Source: Allocoleopsis sp.
GTDB lineage: Bacteria > Cyanobacteriota > Cyanobacteriia > Cyanobacteriales > Coleofasciculaceae
Assembly (NCBI GenBank): GCA_036703375.1
Contig: DATNPC010000503.1
Span: 1 to 47,974 of the forward strand
DNA length: 47,974 nt
Direction: 5' to 3'
Shown: one piece after another, positions 2,003 through 47,640 of the stretch
Numbering within the stretch: the stretch's first letter is position 1
Layout of the letters: each line of letters opens with the position of its first letter
The notes under the pieces: model-generated
What the model was told of the DNA's origin: nothing
Seen by the model: only the letters and a program-made list of their open reading frames with translations
Databases searched by the model: none
Translations under genes and position numbers: made by a program

Positions 2003-2416
2003 ATAGTTCCCTCTTGCTTGTCCTGACTAAAATTTTACCCAAAACTATAATTTTACACTCTAAAGGTGAAGACTTCAAAGAGCCAACACCTTTTGTATGT
2101 ATTCAACCACAATAAGTGTAATCCCACAGTCTGCCAACTTGGTCAAGAGAGGAGATGAGATTAGCAGGAACTTGGAACTAATTTTCCTGATGTCAGCGTC
2201 TATTTTGAATTTAAGCTTCCGGTGCGATCGCAGACAATGAAAGCATAGACTTCGTGCATAAGTAGCAAGACTTTGAGAGATAAGTACTGTAGCTACATGG
2301 CAACAATTAAATGAGAGTGAAAAGTCTCATGTAATACTCTCTCCTTGTCTGGAGCATCGGGAGCGTCTATTGTCAAGCCAAGATACCCTAAACAAGTTTG
2401 ATGGGAGAAATTTCCA

Positions 2417-3169: not shown

Positions 3170-3192
3170 GTTTTGAGTACACAATCGTCATT

Positions 3193-5480: not shown

Positions 5481-6968
5481 GTGTCTTCACCGTGCCTTAA
5501 ATGTATATCAATGAATGTAATTCTACAAGAATTTTTCACTCAATTATCTCGCTCCTTTACAGCTCCCTTATTTAAACTTGGAGAGATACCTGTTTCAATT
5601 AACTCGATAATCCAACTTGTCGTAGCATTACTAATAGTTATTTTCATTTCTCGTGCCTCTAAAAAATTATTTAAGCAGCGATTGCTGGTCAAATTAGGAA
5701 TTGACGAGGGGAATCGAGAAGTGATTGCTACGATGAGTAGTTACACTATCGGAACTTTAGGGTTTTTAATTGTCTTACAAGCTACAGGCTTTAACTTGGC
5801 TTCACTAGTGGTTGTAGCAGGTGGCTTAGGTGTTGGGATTGGTTTTGGATTACAAGATATCACCAAAAACTTTGTCAGTGGATTAACCCTACTCATAGAA
5901 CGCACAGTCAAAGTAGGAGATTTTGTGGAATTTGATGGTCTTTCCGGATATGTCAAAGAAATTGCTATTCGCTCTACGATTATCCGTACTCGTGAAGGTG
6001 GAGATGTTGTTGTTCCGAATAGCCAACTTGTAGGTAGTCGATTGATTAACTGGAGTTACGATAATTTTACCGCTCGGATTCATATTCCGGTTGGGGTTGC
6101 CTATTCTAGTGACCCAATTTTGGTGACAGAAACTCTTTTAAAGTCAGCGTATATGGAACCCCTGGTTTTACACAATCCACCCCCTCAAGTCATATTTAAA
6201 GGTTTTGGTGATAGTGCCTTAGAGTTTGAATTGAGAGCTTGGGTGAATCGGATTGATAGAGAGCCTGATATTAAAAGCTCTTTGAATTTTATTATTGAAT
6301 ATAACTTACGCCAACAAGGAATTACAATTCCCTTTCCCCAACGGGCTTTATGGCTACGCAATCCGGAATCCCTGACATCACTACTTCATCAAAAAGAAGA
6401 TGTCAGAAATCTTGAGAAAGTTGCTCAGCAGCACTTATCGTCACAACCAACGAAACCCTTAACTCTTCGCGATTTACTACGACAGGTAGATTATTTTCAA
6501 AGGTTTACTGACTTAGAATTGCGACGACTGATTGAAGTTGGATATCGGAAGCGCTTAAGATCGTTAGATATCTTATTTCGTGAAGGCGACCCAGGGGATA
6601 CCTTTTACATTATTCTTTCAGGTTCGGTAGAAGTTTTTGTAGAAAAGCTCAATAAACAACTCAAAACGCTTCAGATCGGACAGTTTTTTGGTGAATTGTC
6701 TTTAATGTTAGGAATTCCTCGCACTGCAACTGTTCGAGCATTGGAAGATACAATTTTGTTTGCTATTAACCAAAAAGGATTTGAAAAACTATTGCAAGAA
6801 CATCCTGAATTAGCCGATGTAATCGTTCAAGAATTAGAAAAACATCAAGAAGAATTATCCGAACGGCAGCAGCAGATGCGAGAATTGGGGTTAGTCGATG
6901 CAGCAGAGGATGATAACAATCCTGTCGCTTGGGTTCGTAAACGGTTACAAAATCTTTTTAGCCTTTAA
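5481..6968 (+). CDS. MscS-family mechanosensitive channel with C-terminal cyclic-nucleotide-binding domain (bCNG-type)
   Basis: MscS core (GGLGVGIGFGLQDITKNFVSGLTLLIERTVKVGDFVE...) plus a cNMP-binding domain with phosphate-binding cassette FGELSLMLGIPRTATVRA. The track start is a GTG at 5481. An in-frame ATG at 5511 is an alternative start. Confidence 0.9.
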   Translation: MSSPCLKCISMNVILQEFFTQLSRSFTAPLFKLGEIPVSINSIIQLVVALLIVIFISRASKKLFKQRLLVKLGIDEGNREVIATMSSYTIGTLGFLIVLQATGFNLASLVVVAGGLGVGIGFGLQDITKNFVSGLTLLIERTVKVGDFVEFDGLSGYVKEIAIRSTIIRTREGGDVVVPNSQLVGSRLINWSYDNFTARIHIPVGVAYSSDPILVTETLLKSAYMEPLVLHNPPPQVIFKGFGDSALEFELRAWVNRIDREPDIKSSLNFIIEYNLRQQGITIPFPQRALWLRNPESLTSLLHQKEDVRNLEKVAQQHLSSQPTKPLTLRDLLRQVDYFQRFTDLELRRLIEVGYRKRLRSLDILFREGDPGDTFYIILSGSVEVFVEKLNKQLKTLQIGQFFGELSLMLGIPRTATVRALEDTILFAINQKGFEKLLQEHPELADVIVQELEKHQEELSERQQQMRELGLVDAAEDDNNPVAWVRKRLQNLFSL

Positions 6969-25532: not shown

Positions 25533-26258
25533 ATGAAAAAAGTAGTTTTTACTATTTCTGTATTATTAGGTATTGGGATAGCTGTAGGGTATTATTATTG
25601 GCGACAAGCAACTCAAATCCCTAAGTGGTACACTGCTCAATCTGAGAATACAGCTACCACGATCGCTGGGAGAAATTCTTTAGAGCTAAGTTCTGCTAAA
25701 GCGAGAGCGATCGAGAAAATTAATTCTCGTGTTGAGGAATCATCTAGACGCTCTCCTTCTCAACCTGTAGAAGTTGAACTCAACCCTCAAGACGTTAGCG
25801 AGCTGGTTACAGCCAAAATTGCTGAGAAAGTCAATAACGGTAAAGTTATCCCTCCTGTTTCTGCTATCCGCACGACTATCCAAGATGGAAGAATCGAAAG
25901 TGGCACTGTCGTTAATCTCTCTGAGCTTCCTAAGAATCAATTGGATGAGAATCAAAATGCGGCTATCGAAAAAATAGTCAATACATTCCCTCCGCTCAAA
26001 GATCGAGACGTTTATGTCGGTATCTCAGGGAAACCGTTGGTGGAAAATGGACAATTAGAGTGGGACGATAATACCAAAATCAAGCTGGGAAATTTGTGTT
26101 TGAGTATCAACGAGCTTGCCCAGCGTCTGGGTGTTTCTCCCGAAAAGCTGAAACAAGAACTCAACCTTTCGAGCCAGATAGGAAGATTGAAAGTCAGCGA
26201 TTTGGAATTAAAAAGCGATCGTGTTTTACTCAAAGGGTCTGCGAACAGTGAACGGTGA
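25533..26258 (+). CDS. Membrane-anchored hypothetical protein (AT-rich gene)
   Basis: 241 aa. N-terminal TM helix VVFTISVLLGIGIAVGYYYW and no recognisable domain. Its stop lies 2 bp from the stop of the convergent TIR gene. Confidence 0.6.
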   Translation: MKKVVFTISVLLGIGIAVGYYYWRQATQIPKWYTAQSENTATTIAGRNSLELSSAKARAIEKINSRVEESSRRSPSQPVEVELNPQDVSELVTAKIAEKVNNGKVIPPVSAIRTTIQDGRIESGTVVNLSELPKNQLDENQNAAIEKIVNTFPPLKDRDVYVGISGKPLVENGQLEWDDNTKIKLGNLCLSINELAQRLGVSPEKLKQELNLSSQIGRLKVSDLELKSDRVLLKGSANSER

Positions 26259-26260
26259 GG

Positions 26261-29200
26261 TCAATAATTTTGAGCGCAGAGAGTACGATCGCTTTCTGGG
26301 GCGTTGTACTTAAGATAATCCCTGACGCGATCGCAACCGAGCTTCATTAGATCGTTGAAGTCATTGGGATACACCTTCCAGAGTTTGATCGTCTTATCAA
26401 GACTAGCAGAAGCTATCATCTTGCCATCCGGACTGAAACTCACACTCATGACCGCATCACTATGCCCCTTGAGAGAAGTTATTTCTTTATCTGTCGCCAG
26501 ATTCCAGAGCTTGATGTTGTTGTCAGCATCAGCAGAAGCCGAAGCCAAGGTCTTGCCATCCGGACTGAAACTCACGCTATCAACCCAAAGGCTATGTCCC
26601 GTGAGGGTGGTAATCTCTTTGCTTGTTGCCAGATTCCAAAGTTTGATGGTCTTGTCAACACTAGCAGAAGCCAAGGTCTTACCATCTGGGCTGAAACTCA
26701 CGCTATAGACCCTATACTGATGCCCCTTGAGAGTGGTGAGTTCTTTGCCTGTCGCCACATCCCAGAATTTGATAGTCTTGTCATCACCAGCAGAAGCCAA
26801 AGTCTTGCCATCTGGGCTGAAACTCACGCTCTCAACCCCACTGCTATGCCCCTTGAGAGTGGTAAGTTCTTTGCCTGTCGCCACATCCCAGAGTTTGATG
26901 GTCTTATCCCAACTCGCAGAAGCCAAAGTCTTGCCATCTAGGCTGAAGCTCACGCTCTCGACCCCACTGCTATGCCCCTTGAGAGTGGTGATTTCTTTGC
27001 CTGTCGCCACATCCCAGAGTTTGATGGTCTTATCCCAACTCGCAGAAGCCAAGGTTTTGCCATCCGGGTTGAAACTCACGCTATTGACTGCACTATTATG
27101 ACCTTCCAAATGATTACGCTCTTGCAGGTTGTAAATTGCCTGTTGTAGCGCGTAAGTAGTCTGCTGTAGCGCCTCCTGAGTCTGACTTGGAGCGCCACCT
27201 TGTTCCAACTTGGCATTTTTCAGTTTTTTCCCTGCCTGTAGAGCAGTAACCAGCGAGTCAAGCTGCCGATTGGCAAGAAACAACGCATCAGAGGTGTGAG
27301 TTAGGGCAATGATGTTCTGTTGAGTTGCTTCTCTCGTATTCTTCCGAGCTTCATTGCGTTGAGAAAAGGCAAAGAGAGTCGAGCCACTCAGCACTACTAC
27401 AGAAATACCCAAAACAATCAGTGTTGTTCTCTCCTGCTTAACCCTAGCAGCCGACTCCTGAGCGATTTTTCGTGCCGCTTCCAGTTCGCGCTGTTGTCGT
27501 TCCTCGTCTTGTCGAAGCAAATAATCTCGAAACTCTTGACTCGCAGCAATCAATGCCTTCTGTAACTCTGTCGCCTGGGGTTGTTTGTTTTTTTGCTCTG
27601 CTTCTAGTAACCACTGTTGGGCAATTACTAATTCACTCCCCCGCAACAGCAAGTCAGCACTTTGGCTATTTTCGTTCCATTCAATCGCCCTCTGCAACCA
27701 TTTAGTATGACTGTGAACATGGTCGCGGTCAGTATCGATTGTTCTGACCAATTGGTTAAAATTGGCATTAAAATCCCGCTCATTACCCTCAAAATCAATC
27801 CACTGTACCTTGGCTAACTCCGGATGCAGCTCATCTGAATTCACCTCTCGATGCAGCACCGTCACAAACCGCTTATTTAAACTAGCGGCATACTCCACTT
27901 CATCCGCACAATACGGAGAATTCACCGAACGGGGGGACAGAATAAACAAAAAGTTATCGCAGACTTTAATTCCCTGGCATATCTCCTGGGCAAAATCCGC
28001 TCCCGATGCAATGCTTTCCTGGTCAAACCAGGTGGTCTTTCCCTGTATCTGTAACGCATCATTCAGCTTACGGGCAAAGTCCGAATCAGCACGGGAATAG
28101 GAGATAAATACATCCAATGATATTGCCGGAGGTTGCCGCAGACTTTCATTAATAAATTCTTCAATGAACGGTGTCGGCAGATGCAGCGTTCTCTTGTGTG
28201 CCACCTTCATCCAAGTTTCGGCACTCCGCAAGTTATACCCGCGCAGCAGAATACTCGGATTTTCGTGTTGCCGCTTCCACTTCAGGGCTTTGGTGAGCAA
28301 AATCTTATGCTCGTTATAATAAGCCTCATCCTGATGAAAAATCTTCAACAGTTGACTTTCATCGAGATAGTAATCCTCTTCCTTCACGTTGTCTGTGAGG
28401 TCGATATACTGCAACTCTCGCAGCGCTGATGGCACATGCTCCGGTGGAGTTTCTCGGACTAGCACGGGGATAATCCGCTTGTGCAATGACAACGCTAAAT
28501 CTAATTCTCGGTGACAGTAAGTAGAACGTACTGAATTCGGCGAGAGCAGATAGACCAAATTATCCGCTTGTTCAATCCCGCGATTAATTGCCTCATCAAA
28601 TGCTTCCCCGGTTTGAATATCGGTGGTATTCGTCCAAACCGTAACGCTGTCCCGCCTCAAACTGCGGCGAATCTTCTCCATGGCTGCCCTATCCTCATCA
28701 GCATAGGCAAGGAACACCTGCGTCATCAAGTTATTGGCATTTTTGATACTTTCGGTGATGTATTCGCAATGCAAATCGGTAGGAACACAAGGCGGTTGCT
28801 CGTCTTTAAAGCGTATTTTTAACCAAGCTTCTGCTTCTTGGCGTTCTTCCCCAATTAATAAATAACTATTTTGTTTTTGATGTCGTTCCCACTCCAAGGC
28901 TTTGACTAAAAACCCAGTATGCTGCTCGACATAATCGGCATGACGACGAAATAATTCTATTAATCCCGCAAACGATTGCTCAAAATCATCGATTCCTGCT
29001 CGAAAATACACCCAGTTAATCTGGCGAATTGTCGGGTGCATGTTTTGATAATGGTCGTGTTTACCTTGCCCTTTGTACACGTCCCAATCTTGGGCTGTAC
29101 CACTAGGAAATCTCTGCCGCCAAGTCTCCTGACTAATTTGCTCGACATGCAATAGCGGAATAATCCGTTTATTATGCTTGATTGCCAGCTCAATTTCTCT

Positions 29201-29428
29201 GCGACAATAGTCCGAATTAACAGAATGGGGCGAAATGATGAACAGGAAGTTATGCGCCTTCTCGATACCATCATTAATTTGGTTTTGAAAGTCTACAGCG
29301 AGGGGAATATCATTTTGGTCAAACCAAACCTTCAATCCAAGTTCGAGCAATCGATCGTGAAGTTTTGTAGCGAACGCTTTACTATCTGCTCTGCCGTAGG
29401 AGATGAAGGCATCGAAGATATTGTTCAT
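26261..29428 (-). CDS. Triple TIR-domain / single-TM / WD40-repeat protein
   Basis: Three TIR-like modules (FDAFISYGRADS..SDYCRREIELA; QVFLAYADEDR..STYCHRELDLA; DVFISYSRADS..SPYCADEVEYA). One TM helix (TTLIVLGISVVVLSGSTLFAF) and six clear WD40 blades. The ATG at 29428 is preceded by GGAGG. The track start at 29458 is a TTG. Confidence 0.9.
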   Translation of the reverse strand: MNNIFDAFISYGRADSKAFATKLHDRLLELGLKVWFDQNDIPLAVDFQNQINDGIEKAHNFLFIISPHSVNSDYCRREIELAIKHNKRIIPLLHVEQISQETWRQRFPSGTAQDWDVYKGQGKHDHYQNMHPTIRQINWVYFRAGIDDFEQSFAGLIELFRRHADYVEQHTGFLVKALEWERHQKQNSYLLIGEERQEAEAWLKIRFKDEQPPCVPTDLHCEYITESIKNANNLMTQVFLAYADEDRAAMEKIRRSLRRDSVTVWTNTTDIQTGEAFDEAINRGIEQADNLVYLLSPNSVRSTYCHRELDLALSLHKRIIPVLVRETPPEHVPSALRELQYIDLTDNVKEEDYYLDESQLLKIFHQDEAYYNEHKILLTKALKWKRQHENPSILLRGYNLRSAETWMKVAHKRTLHLPTPFIEEFINESLRQPPAISLDVFISYSRADSDFARKLNDALQIQGKTTWFDQESIASGADFAQEICQGIKVCDNFLFILSPRSVNSPYCADEVEYAASLNKRFVTVLHREVNSDELHPELAKVQWIDFEGNERDFNANFNQLVRTIDTDRDHVHSHTKWLQRAIEWNENSQSADLLLRGSELVIAQQWLLEAEQKNKQPQATELQKALIAASQEFRDYLLRQDEERQQRELEAARKIAQESAARVKQERTTLIVLGISVVVLSGSTLFAFSQRNEARKNTREATQQNIIALTHTSDALFLANRQLDSLVTALQAGKKLKNAKLEQGGAPSQTQEALQQTTYALQQAIYNLQERNHLEGHNSAVNSVSFNPDGKTLASASWDKTIKLWDVATGKEITTLKGHSSGVESVSFSLDGKTLASASWDKTIKLWDVATGKELTTLKGHSSGVESVSFSPDGKTLASAGDDKTIKFWDVATGKELTTLKGHQYRVYSVSFSPDGKTLASASVDKTIKLWNLATSKEITTLTGHSLWVDSVSFSPDGKTLASASADADNNIKLWNLATDKEITSLKGHSDAVMSVSFSPDGKMIASASLDKTIKLWKVYPNDFNDLMKLGCDRVRDYLKYNAPESDRTLCAQNY
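26370..27090. repeat. Tandem 126-bp DNA repeats encoding the WD40 blades
   Basis: The string CTGTCGCCACATCCCAGA recurs at 26749, 26875 and 27001, exactly 126 bp apart. The 26875 and 27001 copies share ~52 identical consecutive nt. Confidence 0.9.
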
Positions 29429-29648
29429 TTCAAGACCTCCATACCAAACCAGGGACAAAATGTCCCGACATGGGTTATGGAACTAACTTAAATCTACCCT
29501 AAGAGTGTTGTTTTATTCACTAGTCACCATCTATTGAAAAGCTTAAGATTGGATGCTTCAAACCCTTAAAAATTTCCAGTCGCCATAACCAGCCAGGGTT
29601 TAAACCTGGAGAATGGTGGAAGATGTCAATTACTCAAACTCCTACTCC

Positions 29649-34385: not shown

Positions 34386-35830
34386 CAGACGCTCACCCTA
34401 AGGGGTAGAGCGCTGGCTTCTCAAGATCGCTCTTGAGCATTCCTGGATAACCACTTATCTAGGCAAAAAGCCCCCGACAGTACGGCAAGACCAGGCAGTT
34501 TCCCTTCTCCGTCGTCCACGGATACTACATTATCAAGCCCACGTATTAACACTATTTGAGCCGCAGCATGGTCGCGATGAGTAGAGTATTGACACTCAGG
34601 ACAATTATGAATTCTATCCCCAAGGGTCTTAGACACAGCCGTTTGGCAGTTAGGGCAAGTTTGGGATGTGCCGTTGGGATTGACTTTTTCAAAGTACACC
34701 CCGCGTTTCCAACAAACCCACTCCAACAAACTCAAGAATGTCCCAAAAGATGCATCAACGCATTCCTTCCTGAGCATTCCTCTATTGAGTCCAACAGTGT
34801 TCAGGTTTTCAGCAAAAATAGTCTGTGCTTGGTCGCAAAGCTTGTGGGCATTTTTCAAATGAAAGTCTTTACGACGATTGGCAATGTGGTGATGGAGTTT
34901 GGCTACTTCAATCTGCGCTTTTTCCCAGTTTTTAGAACGTTTCTGTTTCCTTGCAGCTCTGCGTTGCAGCACTTTCAGCCGACTTTGCAAAGTCTTAAAG
35001 AACTTCGGACGTTCTACATAAGTGCCATCAGAAGAGGTAATAAACCGCTCCAGTCCCAAATCAATACCAATAGCACGACCATGAACGGGTATATCGGGAA
35101 TGCTCACATCCGACTGGATGGTTACAATGACATACCATTGAGTCCCTCGACATCTAGACAGCACCCGCACTTGCTTGACGGCAAAACCGTCAGGGATGGA
35201 GCGGTGCAATGTGATGGGGACAAGACCAATTTTGGGCAGTTTAATTTGATTCCCAGATATGGGGCTTTCTTTAAACTGTGGAAAGAGAAACGACTTGAAT
35301 TGTCCGTACTTTTTGAATCTAGGAAACCCAAAGTCTCGCTTACGGAAGTTCTCCCAAGTGTTATGCAGGCGTTTAATTACGTCTTGCAATACCTGCGAAT
35401 GAACGTTTTTGAGTCCTGTCCATGTTTGTTTGAGTACAGGCAGTTGCCGCTTCTGCTCCATATATCCCGGAAAAGGCGCATCAGCACTGATGATGTATTC
35501 CTTTTCCAAGGAGCATCTATCAACCATGCACTTCCGACTATTCATCCAATCCTTAAGTTCTCGCAAGGCATAGTTATAAACCCTGCGACAGCTTTCCAGC
35601 CACGCAAGCATTTGAGCTTGTTGGCTGACATCTGGATCAATTCGGTATGTGTAGTTCATGGTTAACATTCCAGGAGTTTAGCATGACTTACCACTTACGC
35701 TAAATATCTGTTTTCCCACTACATTTGTTAGTCAACTCCATACTTCCGTTGACCCGCCTTATATCCCGACGCTCAATCGTCACGCGGTACTCACCTACGG
35801 TTCGATGTGTCCGCGTCGATTAGAGCGCGG
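34386..35830 (-). mobile_element. tnpB-only IS200/IS605-family (IS1341-type) element with related imperfect hairpins at both ends
   Basis: RE-side hairpin at 34386-34415: CAGACGCTCACCC-TAAG-GGGTAGAGCGCTG. LE-side hairpin at 35767-35830: CGACGCTCAATCG..ACGCGG-loop-CCGCGT..CGATTAGAGCGCGG. Both share the GACGCTCA / TAGAGCGC arms. The exact termini are not determinable by eye. Confidence 0.7.
34421..35668 (-). CDS. tnpB: TnpB (OrfB) RNA-guided endonuclease / IS605-family accessory protein
   Basis: 415 aa. RuvC-like motifs IGIDLGLERF and THRDHAAAQIV, and a zinc ribbon CPNC...CPEC. No tnpA is adjacent. Confidence 0.9.
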   Translation of the reverse strand: MLTMNYTYRIDPDVSQQAQMLAWLESCRRVYNYALRELKDWMNSRKCMVDRCSLEKEYIISADAPFPGYMEQKRQLPVLKQTWTGLKNVHSQVLQDVIKRLHNTWENFRKRDFGFPRFKKYGQFKSFLFPQFKESPISGNQIKLPKIGLVPITLHRSIPDGFAVKQVRVLSRCRGTQWYVIVTIQSDVSIPDIPVHGRAIGIDLGLERFITSSDGTYVERPKFFKTLQSRLKVLQRRAARKQKRSKNWEKAQIEVAKLHHHIANRRKDFHLKNAHKLCDQAQTIFAENLNTVGLNRGMLRKECVDASFGTFLSLLEWVCWKRGVYFEKVNPNGTSQTCPNCQTAVSKTLGDRIHNCPECQYSTHRDHAAAQIVLIRGLDNVVSVDDGEGKLPGLAVLSGAFCLDKWLSRNAQERS

Positions 35831-39068: not shown

Positions 39069-40217
39069 ATGGCTGAATCTCTTTATCATATAAACAAGCC
39101 TAAGCGGGAAAGAGAGGATATGCGAGATTTATTTCGTGGCTATTATAAACCCTCGCCAAAAGAATTGATAGAAATCTGGAATCGGTGTACTTTTTCGTTC
39201 GACGCTAATGTTTTGCTGCATATCTATAGTTATACACCGGAAACTAGAGAGAGATTTTTTGAGATTATTACTCGATTGAGGGAGAGGATTTGGATACCTC
39301 ATCAAGTCGCTTACGAATACCAAAAGAATCGATTGTATGTCATATCCGATCAAGTCAAAGCTTATGAAGATATCGCTTCAATTCTCAACAAGAATATCTC
39401 TAATTTGAAACAAGAGTTACTTAAAGATTATAAGCGCCATCCTTTTGTAGACACCAAAGGTATTATCAAAGATATCGAAAAAGAGGTTGAGGAAATTAAA
39501 GAAAAGCTCAAGGCGGCTGAGCTGAATCATCCTAACTATATAGAAAATGATGAGCTTCGAGATGTGCTAACTACGTTGCTAGATGGAAAAGTTGGCAAAC
39601 CTTACTCGGAAGAGGACTTAGAGAATATTTATATCAAAGCCGAGAAACGATTCAATTATAAAAAACCACCCGGTTATAAGGATGCCAAAAAGCCTATCCC
39701 AAAAAATTATGGTGACGTGGTACTTTGGTTTCAGCTCATCGATTACGCCAGAATTCAACCGAATCCAATCCTATTTATTACGGATGATGATAAAGAAGAT
39801 TGGTGGCTTAAATATGATGGAGAAACTCTTGAACCTCGACCCGATTTAGTCCAGGAAATATTATCTGAAGTTGGTCGGGATGATTTTCAATTTTATATGT
39901 ATCATAGCGACCAATTTATGGATTACGCAGAAAAGTTTCTCGATTTACCCATTCAACCCGAGGCTATTGAAGAAGCGAGGGAAATCATGCTACAAGAATC
40001 CGTTTCTAAGCGAATAGTCGTTGAGTCCAATTACTTGCGAAGTGTGGGTTATGATACTTCTAGCCAGATTCTTGAAATAGAATTTCAAAGGGGAGATGTT
40101 TACCAATATATGGATGTTCCCCTAGAAGTTTATACCGATTTAATGAATGCTCCCTCACACGGTAGGTACTTTAACACCAATATTAAGGAAGTTTACTCCT
40201 ACCGCAAGTTAGGTTAA
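39069..40217 (+). CDS. PIN-like (DUF4935-type) nuclease domain fused to a C-terminal KTSC domain
   Basis: N-terminal FSFDANVLLHIY and ...LFITDDDKEDWW are typical of PIN-like DUF4935 proteins. The C-terminal 70 aa (YDTSSQILEIEFQRGDVYQYMDVPLEVYTDLMNAPSHGRYFNTNIKEVYSY) matches the KTSC domain pattern. The gene is AT-rich (19/60 GC over 39421-39480) and has no exact HIP1 site. Confidence 0.75.
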   Translation: MAESLYHINKPKREREDMRDLFRGYYKPSPKELIEIWNRCTFSFDANVLLHIYSYTPETRERFFEIITRLRERIWIPHQVAYEYQKNRLYVISDQVKAYEDIASILNKNISNLKQELLKDYKRHPFVDTKGIIKDIEKEVEEIKEKLKAAELNHPNYIENDELRDVLTTLLDGKVGKPYSEEDLENIYIKAEKRFNYKKPPGYKDAKKPIPKNYGDVVLWFQLIDYARIQPNPILFITDDDKEDWWLKYDGETLEPRPDLVQEILSEVGRDDFQFYMYHSDQFMDYAEKFLDLPIQPEAIEEAREIMLQESVSKRIVVESNYLRSVGYDTSSQILEIEFQRGDVYQYMDVPLEVYTDLMNAPSHGRYFNTNIKEVYSYRKLG

Positions 40218-40769: not shown

Positions 40770-42929
40770 ATGCTGAACCAACTAAGAGACATCTTCTCAG
40801 GAAACTTTATAGCTCATGGGTCATGCTACCTCTGGAATCCAGCACTAGTGTGGCTACATGCTAGCTCGGATTTTCTCATTAGCTTATCGTATTATTCGAT
40901 TCCCCTGCTACTGCTCTATTTTGTACGTCGGCGTCACGATGTACCATTCCAGGGAATTTTTATCCTATTTAGTGCATCGATCTTATCCTGTGGGACAAGT
41001 CACTTACTAGAAATTTGGACGCTGTGGCATCCGGACTATTGGCTATCCGGTTTGTCAAAAGCTGTGACAGCTGTAGTCTCTTCGTACACTGCTGCAAAAA
41101 TGGTGCCATTGCTGCCGAAGGCACTGGCATTACCCGGTTCATCTCAGCTGGCAGTTGCTAACCTTGCCTTAGCACGGGAAGTGGCCGAATACAAACAAAC
41201 AGTAGCCGCGCTCCAGCAAGCCAATGAGGAATTAGAACAACAAGTGGAGAGGCGAACTAGCGAACTGTCAAGAGCCTATGAAGCGTTGCAAGTCGAAATT
41301 TGCGATCGCCAATCCGTAGAATTCGCACTAGCAGAACGCGATCGCTATTTGGCGGCATTCGTCGAAATGCAGCACCAGTTATTAGCGCTCAAACCCGAAG
41401 AAAACTACTACGCCTCGATTGTAGAACGGCTGGGACAATGGAGCCGTGCTAGCCAAATCAATATCTTTGAAATCTGCGGCGACAAGCGAAGTCAACTCCT
41501 GTGTCAGTGTGCCGAGTGGGTTGCCCCCGAACGAAGTGGAGACAACCACCACCCGCGTCGGAGTTTCCCTTACGACGAATATTTCCCTCGCTGGATGCCA
41601 ATCTTGGCACAGGGACAAACCTTGATGGGATTAGCCAGCGAGTTCCCTCATCAAGAGCGTTTGATTCTAGAGCGAATGGGAATTTTATCCCTCCTCGTTT
41701 TGCCCCTGACGGTGAGCGATCGCTTTTTTGGCTTTATCGTGTTTGAAAACTGTAGCGAAGCCCGAGTTTGGTCTGCCTCAGCAGTAGATTTATTCAAGGC
41801 AACAGTAGCTTCGCTTTCGCTCCAACACGAGCGAGCGATCGCACAAGGGGCTGTGCGGCGTTCGGAAGCTCAGCTGAAAGCGCAATCTACCGAACTCGAA
41901 CAGACAGTATATCAGCTCAAGCAAGCTCAAGCGCAACTCATGCAGAGCGAAAAAATGTCGAGCTTGGGCATGATGGTTGCTGGCATTGCTCACGAAATTA
42001 ACAATCCAGTCGGTTTCGTGTATGGCAATCTCACGCCAGCCGAGGAATATATCCAAGATTTATTGGGACTGATTAATTTATACCGACAGCACTATCCGGT
42101 TCCCGTACCAGCGATTCAGGCTTATACCGAGGACATCGATTTAGACTTTTTGATGGAAGACTTGCCCAATCTCCTAGACTCGATGAAAGTCGGAGCGGAG
42201 CGTATCCGCGATATCGTGACTACTTTGCGAACGTTCTCGCGGGTTGATGAAGCGAAGATGAAGCCAGTTAATATTCATGAAGGTATCGACAGCACCTTAG
42301 TGATTTTGCACCATCGCCTCAAGGAGAAACACGGACGCTTACCCGTTGAGGTTGTTAAGAAATATGGCAATCTTCCTCCAGTAGAAGGATATGCCGGACA
42401 GCTCAACCAAGTGTTTATGAACATTTTGGTCAATGCCATAGATGCGTTGGATAGTAAGCGTTTGAGAGAGAGTTGTGCTAACTCTGAGTCAATTTCTTCA
42501 CGAATTTGTCCGCCACCACGGATTGAGATTCGGACGGAATTAATTCATAGTGGAGAATCCAATTCAGAATCCAAGAATGTAGTCATTCGGATTATTGATA
42601 ATGGCTCGGGTATTACGGAGTGGGTACGACTTAGGCTATTCGATCCCTTCTTTACCACCAAACCAGTGGGGCAGGGAACTGGGTTGGGGTTGTCTATTAG
42701 CTACCAGATTGTCGTAGCGAAACATGGTGGACAATTACAATGTAGGTCGGTACCCGGAGAGGGAACAGAGTTTATTATTCAGCTTCCAGTTCTACAACAG
42801 ACTCAGCAGCAGCATCGCGATAGCACTCAAACGATTCCAAAAGGAGTTGAGCCAACTCAGCCGCTTTACCAGTATTTAGAGACGTCGGTAGAAAATCGCT
42901 ATCCAATACACCCGATCGCTCATCACTAA
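40770..42929 (+). CDS. Ethylene-binding-domain-like / GAF / histidine kinase
   Basis: The N-terminal 3-TM region aligns by eye with plant ETR1: SDFLISLSYYSIPLLLLYFV...ILSCGTSHLLEIWT...AVTAVVS versus SDFFIAIAYFSIPLELIYFV...IVLCGATHLINLWT...VLTAVVS. The Cys/His pair is spaced as in ETR1 C65/H69. A GAF-like region follows, then H-box [17 protein letters not shown] and HATPase boxes. Confidence 0.85.
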   Translation: MLNQLRDIFSGNFIAHGSCYLWNPALVWLHASSDFLISLSYYSIPLLLLYFVRRRHDVPFQGIFILFSASILSCGTSHLLEIWTLWHPDYWLSGLSKAVTAVVSSYTAAKMVPLLPKALALPGSSQLAVANLALAREVAEYKQTVAALQQANEELEQQVERRTSELSRAYEALQVEICDRQSVEFALAERDRYLAAFVEMQHQLLALKPEENYYASIVERLGQWSRASQINIFEICGDKRSQLLCQCAEWVAPERSGDNHHPRRSFPYDEYFPRWMPILAQGQTLMGLASEFPHQERLILERMGILSLLVLPLTVSDRFFGFIVFENCSEARVWSASAVDLFKATVASLSLQHERAIAQGAVRRSEAQLKAQSTELEQTVYQLKQAQAQLMQSEKMSSLGMMVAGIAHEINNPVGFVYGNLTPAEEYIQDLLGLINLYRQHYPVPVPAIQAYTEDIDLDFLMEDLPNLLDSMKVGAERIRDIVTTLRTFSRVDEAKMKPVNIHEGIDSTLVILHHRLKEKHGRLPVEVVKKYGNLPPVEGYAGQLNQVFMNILVNAIDALDSKRLRESCANSESISSRICPPPRIEIRTELIHSGESNSESKNVVIRIIDNGSGITEWVRLRLFDPFFTTKPVGQGTGLGLSISYQIVVAKHGGQLQCRSVPGEGTEFIIQLPVLQQTQQQHRDSTQTIPKGVEPTQPLYQYLETSVENRYPIHPIAHH

Positions 42930-44255: not shown

Positions 44256-46916
44256 TTAAGGTCGTTGCACCAACGGGGATTGTCCAGCCGCAGGGGGTAA
44301 ACCAGCACGTTTCTCCAGTTCCTGGGCGACAAAGTCAGGAACTTTGAATTCTGCCCCTTTGGCAAGACAGCAATCTCGCACGGCGAGTAGAAATCCTTGA
44401 ATCGCTGCCGATCCTCCGGGCAGGGTGGAAACTTGGGTGAGTAATTTGCGCCACTGGCCTTGATTTTTGCCATAATCCTCTAATAACTGTAAGGCGGCAA
44501 GATACTCGGCGAGGGGGTCGAGGGCAAAGCGAATTTGGTCTTGAGCTGGGCCGATGGTTTGAATGAGACGCAGGCGATCTTCTAGATATTTGAGGCGATT
44601 CTCTACATTGTCCCCGCTGAGGGCAGCTAGTGCATCGTTGCGTTTAGCGGTTGTGGGTCGATAGGTTTCCTTGAGGCATTCCCACGCGATCGCTTTTGCA
44701 TCGTCCTGAATGATTCGGTCATCCAATTTATCCCCATTGACATCCCGATTGAGTTCGTTGAGATAGCTCAGCATTAAATCGGGAATGTTATCGGGTAGGG
44801 GAGCAAGGCCTTGCGCTTTTACACCGGATGCTGTACCATCTCTGACAGCAATCAGCTGTTCGGCGTAGAGCTTAGCCAGTAATACAGTGATGTTGCGTGC
44901 CCCCACCATAACGGAAAGTCGGCTACAAGCCTCGAAAAACTCGGCATCGGTGAAGCGATCGCGTTTTCCTCTTTGGGTAAGGTAAGCTTCCATAAACGAA
45001 GAGAGGCGATTGCCTTCAATTCGCAGCGGCTTGAGGGTTGTCTTGGTGACTTTGCCTAGCGTTTCTTCCGTGCGTGAGGTAATCACTAACGCATTGACAC
45101 AAAAGTCCGGTAGTTCGGGACGAATTGCCTTGCGTGTCGCGTCGCTCATTTCTGAGAGGTGATCGACAATGACGAGAATGCGCCGCTGCCGGAGGAGGCG
45201 TTCGAGCAGTTCTTCGGAAACTGGGTTGGCTTCGTTGGTTAAATCTTGCAACTGTCCCCGAATCGCGGCCATAAACGGGGGTTTATCCGCTGCCTCGAAG
45301 TCTAGTTCTTCCTCGATGAGGACTGGTAGCATGGGGTGTTCGCACAGGCGTTCGGCTTCATCTTCTGCAACCGCCCATTTAGCGATTTGGCAGGCAAGGC
45401 TGGTCTTTCCGGCTCCGCCTTCACCCCAGATTAGCAGGCAACCTCGCTTTTTCTTAAACTTTTCTCGTAAGTCTTTGGCGGTAAACTGGGGTAGAGTTTC
45501 GCCGTCTAGGACAACGGGGACGGGGATGTAGATAGTGCGATCGCGAACGGTATCCTTTTCTTGAAATTCCTCTCGCACTGACTTGATATGTGCGGCTACC
45601 CAGGCATCTAGCACTCTAGAGTGGTAGTGAAAAAAACCGACAAACAGGGCGTAGCGAATGGGTACGCTGATGCCGATAAACGGCAACGGTACGTCGGTGT
45701 AGGGTTTTAGGGCGTTGTTAATGTGCAACAACCACAAGGGACGCAGCCAAAGCAGGATTAACCAGAGCAACGGTACCAAAACGATGTAACTGGTGGCGGT
45801 TAAGAGCCATTGGTGGTTGAGAATCCAGTCCCAAGCGCGATCGAAAAAGCGGGTTTCCTGTTCGGCTTTGAGGGCTAAAAGAGGACGACGCACGACGGCG
45901 ATGTCTTCTTCTGCAAATCGAGCTTGCGGGTCTTCTACAATTTTTAGAGCTTTTTCTAAAGTCGAAATATCTTTTGCCAACTCCGTGCTGGATAGAGTCT
46001 TGGCTTTATCCTGAAACACGCCAGCAATCCCACCCAGTCCGTTGGCTGCATTGCGGCGGACTTCCATCTTTTCGTCTTGCAAGGCGGCAATTAAAGCGGG
46101 GATTGCGGGTTTGGCGTCTAAACCAATTTGCCCTAAAGCTGCTGCTGCATTCAAACGCACGTATTTGTTCTCGTCTTGCAAGGCGTTCATCAGGTTGGGG
46201 ACGGCGGTTTTCGCATTTGTGCCAAATCGTCCCAAGGCATCGGCAGCCCCCTGGCGCACGTATTTATCTTTATCCTGCAAGGCAGCAATTAACGCTGGCA
46301 CGGCTGTCTTCGGTTGCGTCCCGATTCGTCCCAGAGCCGTCGCGGCATTTAAGCGGACTTCTGCACTCTTATCTTGCAAGGCCTCAATGAGTTTGGGGAC
46401 GGCGGCTGATGCTTCGGAACCGATTTTTCCTAACGCATAGGCAACGACGATGCGAAGATTTCGATCGTCATCTTGTAAGGCTTCAACGAGCTTAGGGACA
46501 GCGGCGAACGCTTCTGGCCCGATTCGTCCTAGAGCATAAGCAGTAATGCGGCGAATGTATTCATCCTCATCCTGCAACGTGACGAGTAGGGCAGGGACGG
46601 CAGATGCAGCTTCCGCACCGATTTGACCTAAAGCCGAGGCCGCACGCCAGCGCACTTGCTGATTCTCCGATTTCAACGCCTCGATCAGAAAGGGAACGGC
46701 TGGAGAACCAATTTTTGCGATCGCGTCGGCAGCATCATGGCGCACTCGGAAATCATTATCCGTTAATTTCTCGATCAGGGGAGCCACCTGCGTATAGGGA
46801 ACGGGTTGCGCCCAACTGTTGCGGCTTACCTGCAAGCACAACAACAGGCACAGGATGACAATCTTCAAGACTGCTGCTGTGAGGAACTTAGCTCTAGTGT
46901 GTTTGACCACGCACAT
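44256..46916 (-). CDS. Signal peptide / HEAT-repeat (PBS-lyase type) / TM / NACHT-like STAND P-loop NTPase
   Basis: 886 aa. Signal-like AAVLKIVILCLLLCLQVSRNSWAQP and about 9 HEAT units (D..VR..AA.ALG.IG....AVP.LI.ALQD). Hydrophobic helices (WLLTATSYIVLVPLLWLILLWLRPLWLL). Walker A LLIWGEGGAGKTSLA, Walker B RILVIVDHLSE and ALVITSRTEE. Confidence 0.85.
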   Translation of the reverse strand: MCVVKHTRAKFLTAAVLKIVILCLLLCLQVSRNSWAQPVPYTQVAPLIEKLTDNDFRVRHDAADAIAKIGSPAVPFLIEALKSENQQVRWRAASALGQIGAEAASAVPALLVTLQDEDEYIRRITAYALGRIGPEAFAAVPKLVEALQDDDRNLRIVVAYALGKIGSEASAAVPKLIEALQDKSAEVRLNAATALGRIGTQPKTAVPALIAALQDKDKYVRQGAADALGRFGTNAKTAVPNLMNALQDENKYVRLNAAAALGQIGLDAKPAIPALIAALQDEKMEVRRNAANGLGGIAGVFQDKAKTLSSTELAKDISTLEKALKIVEDPQARFAEEDIAVVRRPLLALKAEQETRFFDRAWDWILNHQWLLTATSYIVLVPLLWLILLWLRPLWLLHINNALKPYTDVPLPFIGISVPIRYALFVGFFHYHSRVLDAWVAAHIKSVREEFQEKDTVRDRTIYIPVPVVLDGETLPQFTAKDLREKFKKKRGCLLIWGEGGAGKTSLACQIAKWAVAEDEAERLCEHPMLPVLIEEELDFEAADKPPFMAAIRGQLQDLTNEANPVSEELLERLLRQRRILVIVDHLSEMSDATRKAIRPELPDFCVNALVITSRTEETLGKVTKTTLKPLRIEGNRLSSFMEAYLTQRGKRDRFTDAEFFEACSRLSVMVGARNITVLLAKLYAEQLIAVRDGTASGVKAQGLAPLPDNIPDLMLSYLNELNRDVNGDKLDDRIIQDDAKAIAWECLKETYRPTTAKRNDALAALSGDNVENRLKYLEDRLRLIQTIGPAQDQIRFALDPLAEYLAALQLLEDYGKNQGQWRKLLTQVSTLPGGSAAIQGFLLAVRDCCLAKGAEFKVPDFVAQELEKRAGLPPAAGQSPLVQRP

Positions 46917-47043: not shown

Positions 47044-47640
47044 TTACCAAATCTGAGTCAAATCCAAGACAAATCCCGGCAGTACATCCTCCCCTGAAAT
47101 GGTAGTTGGCGAGTCTAGCACTACAACCTCTTGCCCTGGTTTGTAGACTTCTACCTTGTTCGTTTTTGGGTCAATTAACCAGCCCAAACGCACACCATTA
47201 TCGATGTACTCTCGCATTTTCTCCTGAAGTTCTTTCAATGTGTCATTTTTGGAGCGTAGCTCGACCACAAAATCAGGAGAAAGCTGGGAAAACTCTTGCT
47301 GTTCGTCTTCACTTAAGGTGTTCCAGCGTTCATTACTCACCCAAGTCGCATCTGGTGACTTCACAGCACCATTGGGTAAAGTAAACCCAGTGGAGGAGTC
47401 GAAGGTTTTACCCAAGCCTGTTTGTCGATTCCAAAGCCAGAGTTGACCATAGACTTCGCCATTTTTCTTACCTGTCCAGGGGGTTGTTGGGGGCATAACA
47501 ATTACTTCTCCCGTCGCAGCACGTTCTAACCGCAAGTCCCGGTTGGCTTCACACAGTTTCAGAAAGTCCTTACTGGTTAGGTTGGGGATGGTGAGGGTGA
47601 TGGGGTTCATGGCTAACAGGTTGGGTACTGGCCTAATCAC
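47044..47640 (-). CDS. Uma2-family (DUF820) endonuclease
   Basis: 198 aa. Typical Uma2 pattern ...ERAATGEVIVMPP...SSTGFTLPNGAVKSPDATWVS...PDFVVELRSKNDT (PD-(D/E)xK-like). Confidence 0.88.
   Translation of the reverse strand: MIRPVPNLLAMNPITLTIPNLTSKDFLKLCEANRDLRLERAATGEVIVMPPTTPWTGKKNGEVYGQLWLWNRQTGLGKTFDSSTGFTLPNGAVKSPDATWVSNERWNTLSEDEQQEFSQLSPDFVVELRSKNDTLKELQEKMREYIDNGVRLGWLIDPKTNKVEVYKPGQEVVVLDSPTTISGEDVLPGFVLDLTQIW

Follow-up and report, generated by a model that had tools for sequence, protein, structure and literature searches.

The window analysed here, a 48-kb stretch of 47,974 nucleotides from an Allocoleopsis sp. contig, carries on its minus strand a complete gene for a protein of 1055 residues, a putative membrane receptor. 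The chain is sequentially composed of three units, each a TIR_2 domain followed by a three-helix linker, then a long helix, a hydrophobic helix, a helical neck and a seven-bladed WD40 propeller. The features are as follows, with residue numbers counted from the ATG.

26261-29428, minus strand: coding sequence of the TIR-array/TM/WD40 receptor, complete, 1055 aa plus TGA stop (ORF list and translation)
29436-29440, minus strand: GGAGG ribosome-binding site, 7 nt upstream of the ATG (read from the sequence)
28946-29419, minus strand: TIR1, aa 4-161 (Pfam TIR_2, E 3.1e-26)
28733-28945, minus strand: linker repeat 1, aa 162-232, three-helix module (repeat consensus; model helices 164-182, 193-203, 218-231)
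28334-28732, minus strand: TIR2, aa 233-365, divergent copy (Pfam TIR_2, E 5.7e-29)
28127-28333, minus strand: linker repeat 2, aa 366-434 (repeat consensus and AlphaFold model)
27731-28126, minus strand: TIR3, aa 435-566, membrane-proximal and most canonical copy (Pfam TIR_2, E 2.6e-31)
27428-27730, minus strand: linker repeat 3 and long juxtamembrane helix, aa 567-667, helix at 621-667 (consensus and model)
27362-27427, minus strand: hydrophobic helix TTLIVLGISVVVLSGSTLFAFS, aa 668-689, predicted membrane span (Kyte-Doolittle 2.34)
27107-27361, minus strand: helical neck, aa 690-774 (model helices 682-718, 722-738, 748-767)
26369-27106, minus strand: seven-bladed WD40 propeller, aa 775-1020 (Pfam WD40, E 3.5e-80)
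26264-26368, minus strand: C-terminal tail, aa 1021-1055, with invariant C1032 and C1051 (108-sequence alignment)

The extent of this reading frame agrees with a preliminary description of the locus, and all sequence motifs quoted there are present in the translation. An in-frame TTG at 29458 would add 10 residues, which accounts for the shift of about 10 in the numbering of that description. The AlphaFold model of the whole chain has a pTM of 0.61.

Domains of the receptor

The three TIR modules were scanned one by one against Pfam TIR_2 (PF13676, gathering cut-off 28 bits). TIR1, TIR2 and TIR3 score 92.7, 101.5 and 109.1 bits, respectively, which places all three in the TIR superfamily, as had been proposed. 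Foldseek superimposes the modules on solved TIR domains with TM scores of 0.74-0.83 (0.74-0.78 for TIR3 against the SARM1 TIR) and returns the TIRs of SARM1, SPARTA and TIR-STING at E values of about 1e-6. The top PDB sequence matches are Cat1, SARM1 and AbTIR, and the top PADLOC and NCBIfam matches are the TIR portions of defence proteins. TIR1 is modelled mostly with pLDDT above 90 and contains a family-specific insertion at about residues 97-135.

Active-site residues of Cat1 include D33, S68 and E74, and alanine mutants of these are inactive (PMC12162218). In an ungapped alignment, they correspond to D469, S504 and E510 of TIR3; the equivalents in TIR1 are D37, S72 and E78. TIR2 keeps S302 and E308, and residue mapping places N267 at the Asp position. 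The glutamate of the C..E motif, recognized in each module by the preliminary description, is conserved at E78 and E308 in 109 of 109 homologues and at E510 in 107 of 109. In the homologue alignment, TIR1 and TIR3 also conserve the counterparts of the Asp and the Ser. These data support three genuine TIR folds of predicted NADase type. Since TIR2 has Asn in place of the active-site Asp, not all three TIRs need be catalytic.

A linker of about 70 residues and of the same type follows each TIR. Its consensus over 108 homologues with three copies each reads yv..Ht..L.kAleWer......LLrG.e...Ae.WLk......q.P.pT.Lq.efI.eS., so that the W...LL(R/I)G...A..W signature noted earlier is a real repeat. The linker folds into three helices in the AlphaFold model with pLDDT above 90, and no Pfam family was matched in scans of the linkers.

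The neck carries the pattern FDALIEAI.AG / ALQ.AVY..RE.NRL.GH, which is conserved in the family consensus. It leads into a closed propeller built from six GH...WD repeats and a seventh closing blade, with 28 strands in the AlphaFold model and a pLDDT of about 95. The preliminary description had recognized the propeller but counted six blades; the model contains seven. The best structural matches in Foldseek are the cyanobacterial WRAP propeller and PkwA (E 1e-29 to 1e-26). At the DNA level, the propeller corresponds to a 126-bp tandem repeat at 26378-27088, with 5.6 copies and 82% matches in Tandem Repeats Finder. Blade-to-blade variation is restricted to a few positions, which are also 'x' in the family consensus, and the number of blades among homologues ranges from 7 to 15. 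The WD40 tail is sensor-like and may bind a ligand. The C-terminal tail following the propeller forms a helix at residues 1024-1041 in the model.

The family and its gene neighbourhoods

Full-length homologues number at least 120, at 49-82% identity. GTDB species genomes contain at least 509 related loci, almost all of them from filamentous cyanobacteria; a genome often has several paralogues, up to five or more. In these organisms the family is widely conserved and its genes lie on the chromosome; it appears to represent a lineage-specific expansion. Its members are named 'TIR domain-containing protein' or 'WD40 repeat protein' in public databases, and no publication describing the family or the triple-TIR/TM/WD40 architecture was found. 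The protein appears to be undescribed, as first suggested, but it is not a one-off.

Three, and up to seven, TIRs occur in a single chain of 1000-2300 residues. Across homologues, each of the TIR positions shows a conserved signature of its own. The order 1-2-3 is found in 226 of about 270 proteins, whereas expanded arrays read 1-2-1-2-3, with type 3 usually the final copy ahead of the helix. The array appears to be ancient and ordered.

The same TIR array and helix are also joined to other tails. In 14 of 150 cluster representatives, a CHASE2 domain lies between TM helices after the helix. CHASE2 fusions make up about 95 of the best 120 clusters (90% identity) returned for one CHASE2-fused protein, including clusters from Trichormus variabilis, Nostoc, Calothrix and Coleofasciculus. 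Other tails are dCache/PDC domains between two TM helices, FGE-sulfatase, Ricin-B lectin and polytopic domains.

The neighbours of the receptor gene in the window are housekeeping genes: gatB, argJ, hemH, an HLIP gene and rhomboid. The window locus is not a defence island. Most related loci likewise have housekeeping surroundings. No LSDAT or SLATT homologue was found in the 48-kb window. However, an LSDAT_prok (SLOG) and/or SLATT gene is present at 26 of 86 related loci, so that the absence of a ThsA-like neighbour, correctly noted for the window, does not extend to the family. LSDAT_prok occurs at 21 of the 86, always on the receptor's strand (chance 0.5^21 = 5e-7), and SLATT at 11. In eight Nostocales loci, LSDAT_prok, a CapV-like patatin and the receptor are co-directional and follow one another in that order. 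By analogy, the logic of the LSDAT_prok/SLATT/patatin loci would be Thoeris-like, and a strictly one-component reading of the receptor may be incomplete given these linked genes. One homologue is adjoined by a separate 589-residue TIR_2 protein.

Membrane topology and possible function

The preliminary description placed a single hydrophobic helix after the TIR array, and the segment is indeed the only one of its kind in the protein. It comprises 22 uncharged residues, and its best 19-residue Kyte-Doolittle window (2.34) is the sole such peak. The helix is kept in 113 of 121 close homologues. Its N-terminal flank is the richer in K/R in 103 of the 121, with a mean of 4.95 compared with 3.0 on the C-terminal side. 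A lone helix roughly 20 residues long, more positive on its cytoplasmic side, is the pattern of a single-pass (type II) protein. With 667 folded residues and no signal peptide, the N-terminal domain has to remain in the cell, and a true span would therefore put the C terminus outside. The fusion of the same array and helix to CHASE2 or dCache domains bracketed by TM helices, to FGE-sulfatase and to Ricin-B indicates that the helix is very probably an N-in membrane span and the tail a far-side sensor. A membrane that separates the TIRs from the sensor thus has strong, if indirect, support.

The helix might instead only anchor the protein at the plasma or thylakoid membrane, or be buried in an oligomer, leaving TIRs and WD40 both cytoplasmic. 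The protein would then resemble an NLR/Avs-type sensor that has lost its NTPase and recognises an intracellular phage or stress protein. We regard this arrangement as doubtful but deserving serious consideration. In 8 of the 121 close homologues, among them the nearest (82% identity), the hydrophobic segment is shortened or absent, which is hard to square with a sensor required on the outside. The closest counterpart of the propeller, at 57% identity, is the WRAP propeller, which belongs to a STAND ATPase protein, so cytoplasmic propellers of such a type also exist; WRAP/PkwA-type propellers are known from STAND and kinase proteins (PMC9218822). AlphaFold is unconfident about residues 666-687 (pLDDT below 50) and does not model the segment as helical, and the C-terminal flank is itself positive (about 3 K/R). 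Nevertheless, the uncharged stretch, its hydrophobicity and its charged flanks are typical of a true span. The lack of a signal peptide on the large N-terminal domain and the extracytoplasmic CHASE2, dCache and Ricin-B tails of paralogues with the same head and helix also speak against a purely intracellular sensor.

The reading that we favour, with slightly more than even confidence, is that of a single-chain, membrane-anchored TIR receptor without an NTPase, which has a far-side sensor and NAD+-cleaving TIRs and functions in immunity or cell death. The hydrophobic helix would cross the membrane, leaving the TIR array on the cytoplasmic side and the propeller in the periplasm, or possibly the thylakoid lumen, as a ligand sensor. 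Ligand binding would cause receptors to cluster or re-orient, and the signal would be relayed through the membrane and juxtamembrane helices. The TIRs could then form composite active sites of the kind known from SARM1, Cat1, SPARTA and TIR-SAVED and cleave NAD+, which would deplete NAD+, yield a signal derived from ADP-ribose, or do both. For about 30% of related loci, the receiver may be the product of a neighbouring gene: an LSDAT_prok (SLOG) protein accompanied by a SLATT pore or a CapV-like patatin phospholipase. No receiver is linked to the window copy, which might kill or arrest the cell through NAD+ depletion alone or feed an effector whose gene lies elsewhere in the genome. The most likely role in filamentous cyanobacteria is immunity or programmed cell death.

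Three further readings concern what the TIRs do and whether this copy works. The TIRs could be non-enzymatic modules that merely recruit other TIR proteins, as in animal TLR/MyD88, and both the missing active-site Asp of TIR2 and the separate TIR_2 protein beside one homologue would fit such a scaffold. Yet the Glu is near-invariant at all three positions in 109 homologues, TIR1 and TIR3 retain conserved counterparts of the Asp and Ser, and to our knowledge all bacterial TIRs assayed to date that carry the catalytic Glu cleave NAD+ (Essuman 2018, as cited in PMC7159879); a scaffold is therefore improbable. Even smaller is the chance that the window gene is a truncated and possibly non-functional paralogue. 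It encodes 1055 residues and seven blades, compared with about 1350-1400 residues and about 14 blades in most homologues, and its DNA repeats favour recombinational deletion. However, the frame is intact and has a good ribosome-binding site, the conserved C-terminal tail retains both invariant Cys, seven blades make one complete and confidently modelled propeller, and a homologue of 1067 residues (P0117) aligns at 100% coverage. Environmental signalling, rather than immunity, carries more weight than either of these but is still unlikely. The TIR array would be a new output module of one-component transmembrane receptors, in which a ligand elicits an ADPR-derived second messenger that regulates filament physiology or development without killing the cell. 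This would suit the CHASE2 and dCache tails, with which kinases and cyclases classically sense the environment, as well as the housekeeping surroundings and the wide chromosomal conservation of the family. On the other hand, the linked genes, where present, encode membrane-damaging effectors (SLATT, CapV-like phospholipase), and the closest TIR relatives are immune effectors that deplete NAD+. Conflict systems of multicellular bacteria are moreover typically marked by paralogue expansion, hypervariable repeats and tails of the FGE-sulfatase, WD40 or TPR type (PMC7159879, PMC3501461).

Comparison with known systems

Profile scans and the literature support the view that the receptor architecture matches no characterised TIR system, as the preliminary description had held: the window locus lacks features that define Thoeris, STAND, CBASS/Pycsar and SPARTA systems. 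The closest TIR sequences and folds are those of the NAD+-depleting, oligomerisation-activated effectors SARM1, Cat1, TIR-SAVED (Cap12), TIR-STING and SPARTA TIR-APAZ. The receptor shares with them the Glu at the catalytic position and, in TIR1 and TIR3, the equivalents of Cat1 D33 and S68, of which TIR2 has the Ser alone; a composite TIR-TIR active site is expected. These effectors sense an intracellular nucleotide or nucleic acid through their own CARF, SAVED, STING, pAgo or ARM-SAM domains, whereas the receptor has a TM helix, a repeat or ligand-binding tail, and tandem TIRs with dedicated linkers. Profile scans of the receptor found no SAVED, STING, SIR2 or APAZ domain, in line with the earlier claim. 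Assignment as a CBASS, Pycsar or type III CRISPR TIR effector was rejected, as Pfam scans found no SAVED, STING, CARF or cNMP-binding domain; the PADLOC SAVED_TIR profile is matched in its TIR part only (aa 6-84 to profile positions 15-93 of 404). SPARTA was likewise rejected, with PADLOC Aga_TIR matched over the first 172 of 430 positions only and no pAgo in the neighbourhood.

Thoeris type VII consists of a TIR and a SLATT effector with cADPR as the signal, and type III of several TIR proteins and a SLOG effector (Yirmiya et al., bioRxiv 2025.12.03.692087). The likeness lies in a TIR protein that would act as sensor and signal generator, in several different TIRs that would act together, and in the adjacent SLOG and/or SLATT gene, found at 26 of 86 related loci but not in the window; eight LSDAT_prok loci add a phospholipase. 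In the receptor, however, the TIRs are in tandem within one membrane protein with receptor-type tails, the SLOG of related loci is of the LSDAT_prok type and a protein separate from the effector, and the window copy has no linked effector. Among the ThsB/ThcB models, NCBIfam ThcB4 reaches 97.1 bits, below its cut-off of 220, and the PADLOC ThsB matches span single TIRs only.

TIR-STAND(NB-ARC/NACHT)-WD40/TPR proteins, such as plant TNLs, Avs-like proteins and the Npun_R6612 WRAP operon (PMC9218822), also combine a TIR effector with a hypervariable repeat sensor. The receptor differs from them in having no NTPase switch, a membrane helix between effector and sensor, and a triplicated TIR. A STAND/NLR-like sensor was rejected: as the preliminary description had stated, there is no NTPase module, with no P-loop NTPase family in Pfam scans of the whole protein or the linkers. 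The sole [AG]xxxxGK[ST] Walker-A-like string (aa 458) sits within a β-strand of TIR3. Animal Toll-like receptors share the logic of a repeat-domain sensor, a single TM helix and a cytoplasmic TIR. Their chain order is the reverse, their ectodomain is LRR rather than WD40, CHASE2 or Cache, and the receptor TIRs look enzymatic and tandem instead of adaptor-recruiting. The resemblance is an analogy and not a demonstrated homology of the whole receptors.

Cyanobacterial orthocaspases/metacaspases carry C-terminal WD40, TPR, FGE-sulfatase or TM-flanked CHASE2 tails (Asplund-Samuelsson 2012, PMC3501461), and EACC and other effector-plus-variable-tail systems have been described by Kaur et al. (PMC7159879, PMC8195603). 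The receptor family resembles both in its exchangeable sensor tails, in the predicted layout 'cytoplasmic death effector - TM - sensor', in its occurrence in the same multicellular cyanobacteria and in the same paralogue expansion. A TIR version of the orthocaspase-type tail proteins was not found described in the literature. The head of the receptor is not a caspase but a TIR array with its own linker domain.

Domain anatomy of the predicted receptor

Judged from its sequence, the window gene encodes a member of a large family of predicted transmembrane TIR-array receptors with swappable sensors.

26261-29428, minus strand: TIR-array receptor, single intact ORF of 1055 aa

The window sequence contains GGAGG 7 nt 5' of the ATG. 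An in-frame TTG is located 30 nt upstream of the ATG and accounts for the offset of about ten residues in the numbering of the preliminary description. In the full-length protein, Pfam recognises three TIR_2 domains and a WD40 array. Scanned singly, TIR1, TIR2 and TIR3 match TIR_2 with E values of 3.1e-26, 5.7e-29 and 2.6e-31, respectively, which confirms the three modules described earlier, and all the motifs quoted at that time are present. The stretches between the TIRs gave no Pfam match when scanned separately. As previously stated, the protein contains no NTPase; its sole Walker-A-like string sits inside a strand of TIR3. Scans with Pfam, PADLOC and NCBIfam ruled out STAND, SAVED, STING, APAZ and SIR2 assignments, the last four of which had also been reported absent.

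An AlphaFold2 model of the protein, built with 107 homologues, has a mean pLDDT of 88.8, and the TIRs and linkers are confidently modelled. A 47-residue helix (residues 621-667) leads into a hydrophobic segment, which is followed by a three-helix neck, a 28-strand propeller and a C-terminal helix. The propeller is composed of seven blades rather than the six counted originally. The hydrophobic segment (residues 668-689) is the only part with a pLDDT below 50. It forms the sole strong Kyte-Doolittle peak of the protein (2.34 over 19 residues) and consists of 22 residues without charge, flanked on either side by sequence rich in K, R and E.

Foldseek matches to the full-length model are dominated by WD40. 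At the DNA level, the blades correspond to a tandem repeat with a 126-bp unit (82% matches). The family blade consensus is GHxxxVxSVxFSPDGKTIASASxDxTIKLWxxxGKxL, and differences between the blades of the window protein sit at its x positions. Blade number varies from 7 to 15 among homologues. This sensor-like pattern of repetition and variation is the one reported for propellers of cyanobacterial immunity-like proteins that were amplified recently and turn over fast (PMC9218822).

TIR active sites and the linker repeat

The TIRs are predicted to be of the NAD+-cleaving kind. The best solved sequence relatives of TIR3 are Cat1, SARM1 and AbTIR. In an ungapped alignment, D469, S504 and E510 of TIR3 fall on D33, S68 and E74 of Cat1, which line the NADase site and whose alanine mutants abolish function (PMC12162218). 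A separate model of TIR3 and its linker (pLDDT 90.4, pTM 0.85) superposes in Foldseek on the TIRs of SARM1, SPARTA and TIR-STING, with TM-scores of 0.74-0.83 when normalised to the isolated TIR domains of SARM1 and Hydra TRR-2.

The glutamates of the C..E motif are E78, E308 and E510 in the three TIRs. All of the 109 three-TIR homologues have the catalytic-position Glu in both TIR1 and TIR2, and 107 of them have it in TIR3. TIR1 also keeps the Asp and Ser equivalents, D37 and S72. TIR2 retains S302 and E308, but the nearly invariant Asn267 (window 28628-28630) replaces the Asp of TIR1, TIR3 and Cat1, so TIR2 may be a non-catalytic or differently acting partner. Asn267 suggests that labour is divided among the TIRs of the array. 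The preliminary description is corrected here in that TIR2 is divergent. Each position has its own conserved signature, indicating that the triplication is old. Of about 270 proteins examined, 226 show the order 1-2-3; arrays with more TIRs follow 1-2-1-2-3 and similar orders, with type 3 usually last, next to the helix.

A linker of ~70 residues follows every TIR and can be aligned both between the TIR positions and between proteins. The model shows it as three helices, and its consensus is yv..Ht..L.kAleWer......LLrG.e...Ae.WLk......q.P.pT.Lq.efI.eS, in which H, W, L, W and S are invariant. The linker belongs to no Pfam family. It also lacks a convincing structural relative in the PDB, because Foldseek with TIR3 plus linker aligned only the TIR (~138 columns), and alignments to SPARTA chains that extended to as many as ~183 columns had an rmsd of 7-10 Å. 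A linker profile searched against 1.84 billion cluster representatives retrieved 5948 proteins at E<=1e-3 and 302 at E<=1e-30, and all of its best 150 matches contain three to seven TIR-linker units. A word-indexed search with the linker, TM helix and neck only (residues 572-779) returned six fragments, including P0124, which has a Ricin-B tail, and P0125. As judged from these alignments, the linker is a new repeat module.

Family spread, exchangeable tails and membrane topology

At least 120 full-length homologues, counted as 90%-identity clusters, are 49-82% identical to the window protein. The best 120 clusters are all cyanobacterial; homologues are labelled in the sources only as 'TIR domain-containing protein' or 'WD40 repeat protein'. 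A GTDB scan with one genome per species located at least 509 receptor loci, and the highest copy number in one genome is five or more. The best 80 of these loci are all in cyanobacteria, mostly filamentous, of the genera Coleofasciculus, Symploca, Caldora, Microcoleus, Calothrix, Rivularia, Nostoc, Anabaena and Richelia, together with Waterburya and others. The gammaproteobacterium Candidatus Parabeggiatoa also has a few members. In P0139, P0370, P0375, P0376 and P0129, a nucleoside 2-deoxyribosyltransferase-like domain is added at the N-terminus; P0129 and P0376 are Candidatus Parabeggiatoa proteins and thus extend the family beyond the cyanobacteria.

Two receptor genes lie close together at loci L043, L047, L074, L078 and L084, and at L045/L058 on one contig, which points to local receptor duplication. 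Two further genes accompany the receptor gene of Allocoleopsis franciscana (locus L001), the second of which looks like a truncated receptor paralogue.

L001 12181-12762: 193-aa protein, no Pfam family, 8 nt after the receptor gene
L001 12817-14586: 589-aa protein, 65% identical to the adjacent receptor from TIR2 onwards (~500 aa)

The window's exact plan, three TIR-linker units followed by one helix and WD40, is found in 66 of the best 150 cluster representatives. The others keep the head and helix and carry a changed tail, which is CHASE2 in 14 of the 150. In a search with the CHASE2 protein P0158, about 95 of the 120 best clusters are CHASE2 versions, in three-TIR and five-TIR forms, including those from Trichormus variabilis, Nostoc, Calothrix, Desmonostoc, Lyngbya aestuarii, Prochlorothrix and Coleofasciculus. 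In the fragment P0124, a linker and the helix are followed by a Pro/Ser spacer and then by Ricin-B lectin repeats rich in Cys.

Alternative tails of homologous proteins, assigned by Pfam
P0158: CHASE2 bracketed by TM helices
P0155: dCache/PDC between two TM helices
P0189: FGE-sulfatase
P0263: TPR
P0216, P0232: WD40, then ten TM helices

The tails bear on topology. Lectins of the Ricin-B type are usually secreted. CHASE2 and Cache are well documented as sensor domains outside the cytoplasm (PMC3501461, quoting Zhulin 2003; PMC4822843). Since CHASE2, Cache and Ricin-B directly follow the same helix in paralogues, the helix probably does cross the membrane, with the TIR array on the cytoplasmic side. 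Among 121 close homologues of the WD40 subfamily, 113 retain the helix, and its distance from TIR3 is constant. The N-terminal flank contains on average 4.95 K/R residues versus 3.0 in the C-terminal flank and is the richer one in 103 of the 121, fitting the positive-inside rule. The N-terminal 667 residues must stay cytoplasmic, because they are folded and lack a signal peptide. In addition, the C-terminal tail contains two invariant cysteines, C1032 and C1051, which would suit a disulfide.

Other observations speak against a span with the sensor outside. AlphaFold confidence is low at the hydrophobic segment, and the segment is shortened or missing in eight of the 121 homologues, which does not fit easily with a propeller that has to be exported. 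In the closest homologue, P0001 (locus L004; 82% identical), about 13 hydrophobic residues are left at residues 664-680. The propeller is 57% identical in Foldseek to the cyanobacterial propeller WRAP, which belongs to a STAND ATPase protein (PMC9218822); the crystallised WRAP constructs stop short of the C-terminal Cys tail. The TM helix of the preliminary description is thus supported by hydropathy and comparison, but not by the structure model. On balance, the WD40 propeller is somewhat more probably extracytoplasmic than cytoplasmic.

Linked effectors and relation to known TIR systems

The window receptor gene has gatB, argJ, hemH, a methyltransferase gene, an HLIP gene, a rhomboid gene and an S9 peptidase gene as neighbours, and no defence island is evident around it. 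LSDAT or SLATT genes are absent from the 48-kb window. A conserved operon partner was rejected, as six close-homologue neighbourhoods share no common neighbour. A convergent 241-aa gene, whose stop codon is 2 nt from that of the receptor gene, was also rejected, having no relative beside other family members.

25533-26258, plus strand: 241-aa protein, N-terminal hydrophobic helix, no Pfam family
34421-35668, minus strand: IS605-type OrfB/TnpB with HTH_OrfB_IS605, OrfB_IS605 and Cas12f1-like TNB domains
3193-5439, plus strand: CHASE2-adenylate/guanylate cyclase, directly upstream of the MscS-type channel gene
5481-6968, plus strand: MscS-type channel with cyclic-nucleotide-binding domain
39069-40217, plus strand: PIN_8 + KTSC protein
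40770-42929, plus strand: histidine kinase with ethylene-receptor-like ETR1_N membrane domain, after the PIN_8 + KTSC gene
44256-46916, minus strand: 886-aa HEAT-repeat protein with C-terminal NCH4 domain
47044-47640: 198-aa ORF, just upstream of the HEAT-NCH4 gene

The OrfB/TnpB gene is the only mobile-element gene seen near the receptor locus. The cyclase and channel look like a sensor-cyclase/cNMP-gated channel pair. NCH4 is the NACHT C-terminal helical domain 4, and the HEAT-NCH4 protein may be related to a NACHT-type conflict protein or form part of one.

In one of the six neighbourhoods, that of Aphanizomenon, an LSDAT_prok (SLOG-type) gene and a SLATT (putative pore effector) gene lie directly downstream of the receptor. 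Linkage was tested in the complete set of 86 fetched loci, which together span 951 kb. Homologues of LSDAT_prok are present at 21 loci, always on the receptor strand (0.5^21 = 5e-7), SLATT genes at 11, and one or both types at 26. Pfam scans confirmed the identity of LSDAT_prok (E 1e-65 to 1e-71) and of SLATT (SLATT_3 and SLATT_1). The reported lack of a ThsA-like neighbour is therefore correct for the window, but not for these related loci. At eight Nostocales loci, LSDAT_prok, a patatin (382-408 aa) and then the receptor are co-directional.

L046, L049, L050, L051, L072, L077, L038, L083, ~2000-4700 of each locus: LSDAT_prok-patatin-receptor trio
L027 2037-2798 and 3119-4039: LSDAT_prok paired with SLATT, example

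The patatin resembles CapV, the CBASS phospholipase; it scores 125.8 bits with NCBIfam CBASS_lipase, under the cut-off of 200, and E 1.7e-46 with the PADLOC phospholipase effector model. Twenty receptors from the 26 linked loci were checked, and every one has exactly the architecture of the window protein; the TIR3-linker region of linked-locus receptors is 72-86% identical to that of the window. Pfam groups the eukaryotic relatives of LSDAT_prok as the SLOG domain of TRPM channels, and a literature search returned nothing relevant on LSDAT.

Domain anatomy, active-site conservation, the conserved hydrophobic helix, exchangeable tails, paralogue expansion and recurrent linkage to SLOG and membrane-damaging effectors form the basis of the mechanism proposed as most likely. 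A ligand on the tail would cluster or re-orient the receptors, and the juxtamembrane helix and linkers would relay the change to the TIR array, which would assemble composite active sites and cleave NAD+. The array would then deplete NAD+, produce an ADPR-type signal that is read by LSDAT_prok and in turn triggers SLATT or patatin, or do both. The window copy, lacking a linked effector, may deplete NAD+ directly or rely on an effector encoded elsewhere.

We tentatively propose, as a reading that is possible yet rather less than even in likelihood, that the family comprises prokaryotic counterparts of Toll-like receptors that sense the envelope and share an LSDAT_prok helper network. A fast-diversifying extracytoplasmic sensor (WD40, CHASE2, Cache, lectin or FGE-sulfatase) would detect phage or non-self at the envelope, and the signal would cross one TM helix to a cytoplasmic enzymatic TIR array. 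Many paralogous receptors per genome could thereby feed a diffusible ADPR-derived nucleotide to one shared LSDAT_prok sensor, which would open a SLATT pore or activate a CapV-like phospholipase. Such a sensor-helper network is akin to that of plant TNLs. If true, this would be the first bacterial TIR immunity set off from outside the cytoplasm. If topology and activity hold, the envelope could trigger bacterial TIR signalling in an analogue of animal TLR logic, and LSDAT_prok, an uncharacterised SLOG family, would gain a link to a ligand made by TIRs. One head with WD40, CHASE2, dCache, FGE-sulfatase and lectin tails would then offer a large, easily testable set of natural chimeras. The family would then also be relevant to phage defence and programmed cell death in the filamentous cyanobacteria that form blooms and mats.

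The receptors probably belong to the class of TIR-based conflict and immune signalling. No experimental study of the family was found in the literature. It is undescribed in the full text searched, which covered few subscription journals, and may have been mentioned earlier, for example in Aravind-group surveys. As the preliminary description held, the window protein matches none of the characterised TIR systems compared. STAND/NLR sensors have an NTPase, and CBASS, Pycsar and CRISPR TIR effectors have a nucleotide sensor, whereas the window protein has neither. The APAZ and pAgo of SPARTA are missing from the gene and its neighbourhood, and the window copy lacks the adjacent effector of Thoeris, with sub-threshold model scores. 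To our knowledge, all characterised bacterial TIR systems (Thoeris, CBASS/Pycsar TIR effectors, SPARTA, Cat1 and Avs-like TIR-STANDs) sense infection intracellularly, and oligomerisation, where needed, is driven by nucleotide, nucleic acid or NTPase. In contrast, TIR-array receptors join tandem catalytic-type TIRs directly to a predicted membrane helix and exchangeable sensors, without an NTPase. The linked loci, with a TIR signal and a SLOG, SLATT or patatin receiver, follow a Thoeris-like logic; TIR with SLATT (type VII, cADPR) and multi-TIR with SLOG (type III) are recognised, and phospholipase effectors are predicted (Yirmiya et al., bioRxiv 2025.12.03.692087). The nearest conceptual relatives are the cyanobacterial orthocaspases, which carry the same tail set including TM-flanked CHASE2 (PMC3501461), and the effector-plus-variable-tail systems of multicellular bacteria (PMC7159879, PMC8195603).
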